The translations under genes and the position numbers were made by a program. This document shows positions 57,531 through 58,889 of a stretch of DNA of 64,000 nt, in pieces. Source of the DNA: Escherichia coli (GTDB taxonomy: Bacteria; Pseudomonadota; Gammaproteobacteria; Enterobacterales; Enterobacteriaceae); the NCBI RefSeq assembly GCF_013315695.1, contig NZ_CP054353.1; one strand, 5' to 3'. The notes beneath the pieces were generated by a model. It worked only from the letters and a program-made list of their open reading frames with translations. It searched no databases and was not told the DNA's origin. The first letter of the stretch is position 1; every line of letters begins with the position of its first letter.

Positions 57531-58889
57531 ATGATGAATATCCGCACGCTTAAGCTCACTAATCTGGGGCGGTTTGAAGAACTTGACGTTCATCTGGCTC
57601 CAGTGGAGGAGTTCAAGAGCAATGTGACCGTTTTTATTGGTAATAATGGTGCAGGTAAAACATCAATATTAAAATCGTTGGCAACCAGCCTGAGTTGGTT
57701 CGTTGCCCGAGTTCGTACTGAAAAGGGTAACGGTAGCCTTATTCCTGAAGACGCTATTCTGAACGGTAGGAGTTCGGCGACAATTGAACTTCAGGTACTG
57801 AATACGCATCCAGCGACGGAGGCCGCTACGCCCTACCGTTGGTTGCTTGCCAGAACGGCCAGTGGGAAAAAATCGACCACCGCCTCCAGCCTGCAAGAGG
57901 CCAGCCAATTGGCTGCGTTTTATCGAGATCAATACACCCAGAATAGCGGGGCATCCTTCCCGCTTATCGCCTTCTATCCCGTAGAACGTGTCGTGCTGGA
58001 CGTGCCGTTGAAAATAAAAGAACGTCATAATTTTTTGCAACTGGATGGCTACGATAACGCCCTGAATCAGGGTATTGATTTCCGCCGTTTCTTTGAATGG
58101 TTTCGCAATCGCGAAGATGCAGAAAATGAATCAGGCTTACCGCAAGACGTTCTGGATAAGCTCAGTACCAGGATAGATCTCGATAACACCGTCTTAAATG
58201 CATTAACGGCAATCATGGCCTCGTCCCGGGATCGCCAGTTGACCGCCGTCAGAACGGCCATTAGTCGCTTTATGCCAGGGTTCAGCAACTTACGCGTCAG
58301 GCGTAAACCTCGCCTGCATATGTCGATTGATAAAAATGGCCAGACACTGAATGTGCTGCAATTATCGCAGGGTGAAAAATCACTGATGGCGTTAGTCGGC
58401 GATATTGCTCGCCGCCTGGCAATGATGAACCCGATGTTAGAAAACCCGCTAAACGGCGAGGGAATTGTATTAATTGATGAAGTGGACATGCACCTGCATC
58501 CAACATGGCAGCGTACAATCATCCAGCGTCTGACGACAACATTCCCACATTGCCAGTTTGTCTTAACAACCCACTCTCCTTTAGTGATCAGTGATTGCAA
58601 AGATGTGCTGGTTTATTCTCTGGATGATGGCGAATTAACGCAGCTCCCGTCTCTGTATGGGCAAGATGCGAATACTGTGCTTTTGAATGTGATGGATACG
58701 GATATTCGCAATGCGACAGTGGCAGAAAAACTTAACGATCTTTTGGATCTGATTCAGAAAAACGACTTTATCAACGCTAACGCTCTTCTGAATACGCTAA
58801 GCCTGGAACTTCCTGAAAACCATCTTGAACTGGTGAAAGCCAGAATGCTTCTGCGCAAACAGGAAATTAAACATGCGCGAAATAACTAA
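57531..58889 (+). CDS. ABC/OLD-type P-loop ATPase (AAA_21/AAA_15-like, no TOPRIM domain); candidate defence-system ATPase, Septu PtuA-like
   Basis: 452-aa ORF; Walker A GNNGAGKT (res 37-44), ABC signature-like LSQGEK (res ~278-283), Walker B IVLIDEVD (res ~312-319), H-loop HLHP, TTHSP motif (res ~346-350); not in the K-12 smrB-yfcO interval as I recall it. Confidence 0.75.
   Translation: MMNIRTLKLTNLGRFEELDVHLAPVEEFKSNVTVFIGNNGAGKTSILKSLATSLSWFVARVRTEKGNGSLIPEDAILNGRSSATIELQVLNTHPATEAATPYRWLLARTASGKKSTTASSLQEASQLAAFYRDQYTQNSGASFPLIAFYPVERVVLDVPLKIKERHNFLQLDGYDNALNQGIDFRRFFEWFRNREDAENESGLPQDVLDKLSTRIDLDNTVLNALTAIMASSRDRQLTAVRTAISRFMPGFSNLRVRRKPRLHMSIDKNGQTLNVLQLSQGEKSLMALVGDIARRLAMMNPMLENPLNGEGIVLIDEVDMHLHPTWQRTIIQRLTTTFPHCQFVLTTHSPLVISDCKDVLVYSLDDGELTQLPSLYGQDANTVLLNVMDTDIRNATVAEKLNDLLDLIQKNDFINANALLNTLSLELPENHLELVKARMLLRKQEIKHARNN

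Follow-up and report, generated by a model that had tools for sequence, protein, structure and literature searches.

The closest characterised relative of the locus analysed here is Septu EcB88, the PtuAB system of Escherichia coli JBBDAGI-19-0041 (Chihara et al., Nat Commun 2026; PMC13096335). The two EcB88 genes alone, carried with their native flanks, give DH10B protection from Demerecviridae (T5-like phages) and, to varying degrees, from T-even phages, and this defence is abolished by the substitutions K43A and D316A in PtuA and H75A and N91A in PtuB (PMC13096335). Infected cells grow poorly, a response of the abortive-infection type, and tRNA-Tyr is cleaved in its variable loop at C48/A49, on infection only (PMC13096335). 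The defence is overcome by extra phage tRNA-Tyr or by SegB-driven tRNA-Tyr amplification in T6, and a tail-sheath candidate for the trigger has been excluded (PMC13096335). A second stand-alone Septu, that of ATCC 25922, is represented by solved structures (PDB 8EE4, 8EE7, 8EEA, 8SUX). As described second-hand in PMC12819146 and PMC11555353, DNA nicking by this PtuAB is inhibited by ATP, and its PtuA is reported to have no ATPase activity and to bear a leucine where Ec78 PtuA has Gln361 as the fifth residue of the signature. [quoted passage not shown] An N-terminal extension of ~65 residues on the retron PtuA binds the RT and the ncRNA (PMC12819146).

The DNA analysed here, a stretch of 64 kb from an E. 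coli chromosome (hereafter the window; contig NZ_CP054353.1), carries ptuA (57531..58889, + strand), which encodes the 452-aa ABC/SMC-type ATPase of Septu, and ptuB (58873..59532, +), which encodes its partner, a 219-aa HNH nuclease. Over the region compared, the window is 100% identical to E. coli strain MSB1_4I. The ptuAB pair is very probably a stand-alone type I Septu system and an allele of Septu EcB88. The system as such is already known, as PADLOC has models for it and the same chromosomal site has already yielded a published, near-identical allele. Compared with the EcB88 sequences given in Supplementary Data 8 of that study (PMC13096335), PtuA has the same length as EcB88 PtuA (WP_000981116.1, 452 aa) and shares with it 395 of the 399 residues compared (99.0%), the comparison covering 399/452 residues with the last 53 outside it. 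The four differences (window residue first) are D19E, L70P, T220A, and I228L. PtuB likewise matches EcB88 PtuB (WP_016243072.1) in its length of 219 aa and in 216 of the 219 residues (98.6%), the exceptions being N168S, V189A, and V198I. The residues tested by mutation, K43 and D316 in PtuA and H75 and N91 in PtuB, are the same in both alleles and bear the same numbers. The EcB88 clone starts in the 3' end of smrB, and the part of it that was compared aligns to window positions 57236-57633 with 381/399 nt identical (95.5%).

The gene order at this site is mnmC, yfcL, epmC, yfcA, mepA, aroC, prmB, smrB, ptuA, ptuB, followed on the opposite strand by a yfcO-like fimbrial operon. The ptuAB genes form a 2-kb cassette between smrB and this operon, whose fimbrial adhesin gene makes up the flank past ptuB. 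The G+C content of the cassette is 0.47-0.48 versus a window average of 0.52. The remainder of the window consists of core genes, e.g., nuo, lrhA, alaA, ackA-pta, the his transporter, and purF. Two further elements were observed elsewhere in the window. Next to rpnB, genes for a trans-sulfuration-family enzyme and an NhaC antiporter lie in a stretch of low G+C content (0.40-0.45) at ~28053-30706 (-), which has the look of a small accessory insertion within the core genome. In the gap between mnmC and yfcL, positions 52138-52194 gave a sub-threshold Rfam match to naRNA4 (CssrE) on both strands (32.6 bits versus a gathering score of 59.5) and are most likely a REP-type palindromic element.

The spacer between smrB and ptuA is 85 nt long and contains a candidate sigma-70 promoter, CTGACA-18-TAAGAT (57470..57499, +), which agrees with the consensus at 9/12 positions. 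The promoter and terminator scans returned sites no more often than shuffled sequences did, and the promoter call is therefore weak, although the expression of the EcB88 clone from its native upstream flank provides indirect support for it (PMC13096335). Where ptuB and the yfcO-like gene converge, a G+C-rich 8-bp hairpin was read from the sequence, ACGGGGCC-AGAT-GGCCCCGT (59544..59563), and is a possible bidirectional terminator. As it is not followed by a T-run, the terminator scan did not report it. At the equivalent place, K-12-type genomes have a different hairpin, GGCAGGGGC-GAAT-GCCCCTGCC.

The start and stop of ptuA in RefSeq coincide with the open reading frame at 57531-58889 (+). Its translation contains a Walker A motif or P-loop, GNNGAGKT (residues 37-44, including K43; 57639..57662, +), an ABC signature-like LSQGEK (residues 278-283; 58362..58379, +) that is invariant in the homologues, a Walker B motif IVLIDEVD (residues 312-319, including D316 and E317) followed by HLHP (residues 321-324; together 58464..58502, +), and an H-loop TTHSP (residues 346-350, including H348; 58566..58580, +), into which the sequence matches to AriA and OLD fall. 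Residues K43, E282, D316, E317, and H348 are invariant in 26/26 homologues of 65-90% identity. The first-pass annotation, made from the letters and open reading frames, had named the same five motifs, and each lies at the residues it gave. It had further described the ATPase as free of a TOPRIM or other nuclease domain and as belonging with the two-component PtuA/AriA-like ATPases rather than with OLD or GajA, and the searches bear out both statements. In Pfam, the matches are confined to ABC/SMC-type ATPase families (AAA_21, AAA_23, SMC_N, and AAA_15), with no TOPRIM or other nuclease domain, and the PADLOC PtuA model matches the protein from end to end with an E-value of 4.2e-168, far beyond chance.

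The AlphaFold2 (AF2) model of PtuA has an overall pLDDT of 72.5. The region between the Walker A and signature motifs had been taken for a single insertion of roughly 240 residues. The gap itself is real and spans 233 residues, but the model fills it with ordinary ABC-lobe strands and a helical sub-domain set in the ATPase head at residues ~184-247 (58080..58271, +). This sub-domain is built of four helices (184-200, 205-214, 219-232, and 235-247), predicted with moderate confidence, and aligns with the region in which retron PtuAs are longer by ~18-28 residues and which contains their "helical flap". The C-terminus is helical, as had been expected, yet shorter than the ~100 residues proposed for it: the model of PtuA alone shows ~72 residues in three helices (380-409, 413-426, and 432-451; pLDDT ~83-88), an extension at residues 380-451 (58668..58883, +) that is predicted to be the PtuB-docking element. 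In solved PtuAB complexes, the three-helix C-terminal domain of PtuB joins two PtuA C-terminal extensions in a nine-helix bundle (PMC12819146), and by analogy we infer that the three-helix extension docks PtuB here.

Searched against the sequences of solved structures, PtuA is closest to retron PtuAs, that of Ec83 (3.8e-62) before that of Ec78/Eco7 (~1e-47), followed by the stand-alone Septu PtuA 8EE4 (1.2e-32), AriA (1e-6), and the OLD nuclease (9e-5). A second ranking, which includes PtuA, AriA, GajA, and OLD proteins, likewise has PtuAs at the top. Its values are 34.6 for Ec83, 34.1 for Eco7, 29.7 for Septu 8EE4, and 27.3 for a further retron I-A PtuA, then 18.8 for AriA, 16-18 for SMC and Rad50 heads, and 15.0 for RecF, and lowest 14.4 for the retron-Eco8 OLD, 13.0 for OLD, 12.8 for GajA, and ~12 for ABC transporters.

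Any nuclease activity had been expected to come from a partner of the ATPase, and the overlapping downstream gene indeed encodes the HNH nuclease PtuB (PADLOC PDLC00344 PtuB, E-value 4e-95). ptuB is co-oriented with ptuA and overlaps it by 17 nt (58873..58889, +), and an AGGAAA Shine-Dalgarno sequence lies 7 nt before the ptuB ATG, so that translational coupling of the two genes is predicted. In NCBIfam, PtuB matches PtuB NF041761 (E-value 1.2e-26) and TIGR02646 (E-value 7e-11), both under cut-off; its best match, the retron-Ec78 PtuB model, scores 93.9 bits versus an equivalog cut-off of 150. On its own, the sequence has no Pfam match, even at E-values up to 10, and a single-sequence phmmer search found nothing among solved structures at E-values up to 0.01. 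A profile of six orthologues, however, matches the Ec83 HNH endonuclease 9e8z_E (9.4e-7), a TIGR02646 protein (1.7e-4), and the Septu PtuB 8ee7_C (0.007), and H75 aligns with the histidine that is replaced by alanine in the Ec83 mutant structure 9o4a. The HNH core (59041..59190, +) consists of C57-x2-C60-C61, H75, N91, C96, C102, and H106, all eight residues being invariant in the six orthologues. The AF2 model of PtuB, built from these few (six) sequences, has a pLDDT of 46.6, too poor for confirmation of the fold.

Taken with the results on EcB88, these features suggest how the system might operate. PtuA would oligomerise via its ATPase heads and helical sub-domain, and its C-terminal three-helix extension would hold PtuB. 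The binding or hydrolysis of ATP by PtuA may gate the nuclease, as suggested by the failure of the Walker A and Walker B mutants of EcB88 to defend. A phage cue would then set the nuclease activity free, and infection would lead, as it does with EcB88, to the cutting of tRNA-Tyr in the variable loop (C48/A49), either by PtuB directly or indirectly. To our knowledge, tRNA-Tyr cleavage in vitro has yet to be achieved with any PtuAB. The nuclease step may be indirect, since such cleavage was not reconstituted with PtuAB, the effector of retron-Eco7 (PMC12673091). PtuAB is reported to nick supercoiled DNA (PMC12819146).

For these two reasons, nicking in the style of ATCC 25922 stays a minority alternative, in which a hexameric PtuA platform holds PtuB, DNA nicking is freed when ATP falls, and the loss of tRNA-Tyr is secondary. 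We consider it unlikely for the present locus. The 99%-identical EcB88 cuts tRNA-Tyr site-specifically on infection, and extra tRNA-Tyr rescues the phage. PtuA is also closer to the retron PtuAs (~28-33% identity) than to ATCC 25922 PtuA (~23-27%), and the retron Eco7 PtuA targets tRNA-Tyr. Moreover, the signature motif LSQGEK is that of Ec83 PtuA, whereas ATCC 25922 PtuA has a leucine there and shows no ATPase activity. Action through tRNA-Tyr, as in EcB88, is the favoured reading. Two further speculations, which we regard as rather doubtful, are that the retron-free EcB88-type clade represents the ancestral state for the type I-A retron effectors, in which case tRNA-Tyr targeting would be older than the capture by retrons, and that the tRNA is cut by a host factor, switched on once PtuAB has acted on DNA, instead of by PtuB. 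With two genes and no msDNA, ptuAB would offer the simplest setting for deciding whether the tRNA is cut directly or indirectly.

Of 5426 complete E. coli genomes, 183 carry ptuA, always on the chromosome and in a single copy, and for 181 of these carriers the identity is 99% or higher. The last ~238 bp of ptuB (59308-59545 in the window; ~890-1130 in locus L002; 2731004-2731241 in NC_004431.1) is more widespread and occurs in 658 complete genomes. From these two counts, ~475 genomes keep only a scar of a Septu deletion, which lies unannotated between smrB and yfcO, e.g., in CFT073 and PU-1. In K-12-type genomes, neither ptuA nor the 3' end of ptuB was found. In a few E. coli genomes (e.g., NZ_CP115358.1, 1573763-1574954), the match to ptuA stops after the first 1192 of 1342 nt, which suggests a variant or recombinant ptuA 3' end and ptuB junction.

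The excess of scars over carriers raises the alternative that the allele in the window is itself decaying and non-functional, heading for the deletion seen in many E. coli. A candidate lesion is P70L: PtuA has leucine at position 70 (codon 57738-57740), where EcB88, other E. coli alleles, and 23/26 homologues have proline, and the position adjoins the invariant I71-P72-E73. We judge this alternative very unlikely. Both open reading frames are intact and every catalytic residue is present, the near-uniformity of ptuA among its carriers argues against decay, and histidine or alanine is tolerated at position 70 in other homologues.

The close kinship with retron PtuAs brings up another alternative, that ptuAB is an orphaned effector of a type I-A retron (Ec78/Eco7 or Ec83/Eco4 like) whose RT and ncRNA have been lost or separated. 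As well as the best solved-structure matches, the top NCBIfam match of PtuA is a retron protein, the retron Ec78 PtuA model NF041760. This match reaches only 350.6 bits versus a cut-off of 500, and is split into two stretches, the better one on profile positions 277-524. No RT open reading frame was found in the flanks or elsewhere in the 64-kb window, and no Rfam family of retron RNA matched at E-values up to 1 over 52-64 kb, and the system is accordingly taken as stand-alone. The N-terminal extension of ~65 residues is also absent from PtuA, as the alignments to the Ec78 and Ec83 PtuA chains begin at chain residue 67-68. In five homologous loci of other genera (Sodalis, Bowmanella, Aeromonas, Aquitalea, and Nitrosomonas; PtuA identity 68-75%), a downstream gene of PtuB size (210-223 aa) overlaps ptuA by 14-17 nt in 5/5 cases, and an RT is present at none of the five. 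Since EcB88 also defends with two genes alone, the orphaned-retron explanation is effectively refuted, and we attach scarcely any probability to it. The reading of ptuAB as a stand-alone Septu accords with the gene content of all these loci. In four of the five (PtuA 68-73% identical), ptuAB was observed inside a type I restriction-modification operon, flanked by hsdS and hsdR (L005 2220-11386, L006 1-6966, L007 2232-10547, and L008 1492-11374), whereas the E. coli pair stands by itself.

The wider PtuA family comprises 17,507 cluster representatives at E-values up to 0.001 and 1,613 at 1e-30. The 20 nearest representatives are 385-484 aa long and none has the length of a retron PtuA, which again speaks against a retron origin of the E. 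coli protein. The first long relative is P0141 (552 aa, E-value 6e-106; L010 169-3000), which directly follows an RVT_1 gene in an arrangement of the retron I-A type and counts in favour of the orphaned-effector alternative. For P0141, P0177, P0204, and P0260, the match to the retron PtuA model starts at profile position 1-3, and these four, with the long form P0215, make up one clade in a rough neighbour-joining tree (midpoint-rooted and without bootstrap support), beside the stand-alone forms, including the clade of the query. Judged by sequence, the retron I-A PtuAs are the nearest long-form relatives of PtuA. The tree and the retron-length matches are in keeping with published work, in which type I-A retrons are seen as having recruited a Septu module, and contain nothing fundamentally new. 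Two other long relatives have different N-termini. P0175 (551 aa; L011 310-2624) begins with an Mrr_cat nuclease domain, and its downstream gene, at 220 aa, is of PtuB size; P0179 (621 aa; L012 4001-6498) has a long N-terminal extension, unassigned to any domain, and a 211-aa gene downstream.

That PtuA has a housekeeping function as an ABC/SMC ATPase (RecF/RecN/SbcC-like or part of a transporter) and no defence role, the outcome that the first-pass annotation had named as fatal to its assignment, has a negligible probability, given the PADLOC PtuA match, the failure of every housekeeping NCBIfam model to reach its cut-off (RecF 30.9 bits versus 172, Rad50 36 versus 1000, and transporter models 15-19 versus >190), and the presence of ptuA in only 183/5426 genomes.

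In RefSeq, ptuA is named "AAA family ATPase" and ptuB "hypothetical protein / HNH endonuclease family protein". These generic names leave the defence repertoire of the strain under-described, and the Septu assignment is therefore useful as an annotation. Being related to the retron I-A effectors but reduced to two genes, ptuAB could help explain how an HNH complex brings about tRNA-Tyr cleavage, and the locus could help find the phage signal that activates stand-alone Septu.

In its protein architecture, the system can be set apart from the other described classes of ATPase-based defence. AriA of PARIS and GajA of OLD/Gabija belong to the same ABC-ATPase superfamily and have the Walker B/H-loop region in common with PtuA. 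PARIS is also a two-component, tRNA-targeting system of an ATPase and a nuclease (PMC12673091), but its pairing of an AriA-type ATPase with the TOPRIM protein AriB is not that of the present locus, where an HNH nuclease is the partner. The OLD/GajA class is defined by a C-terminal TOPRIM fusion, and Pfam gave no TOPRIM for PtuA. Compared with the type I-A retron effectors, the locus has no RT, ncRNA, or msDNA of its own, neither an RT nor msr/msd adjoins it, and its PtuA, besides being devoid of the N-terminal extension, is ~18-28 residues shorter in the region of the helical flap that encircles the msDNA; together with the NF041760 score below cut-off, this sets it outside that class. In the signature motif, PtuA agrees with Ec83 PtuA and differs from Ec78 PtuA, which has LSDGQR. 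Compared with the ATCC 25922 Septu, the difference extends to the nuclease, PtuB being 243 aa long there and 219 aa here. ATCC 25922 PtuA has a leucine in the signature motif, whereas the EcB88 type, to which the present locus very probably belongs, is marked by LSQGEK and by action via tRNA-Tyr.
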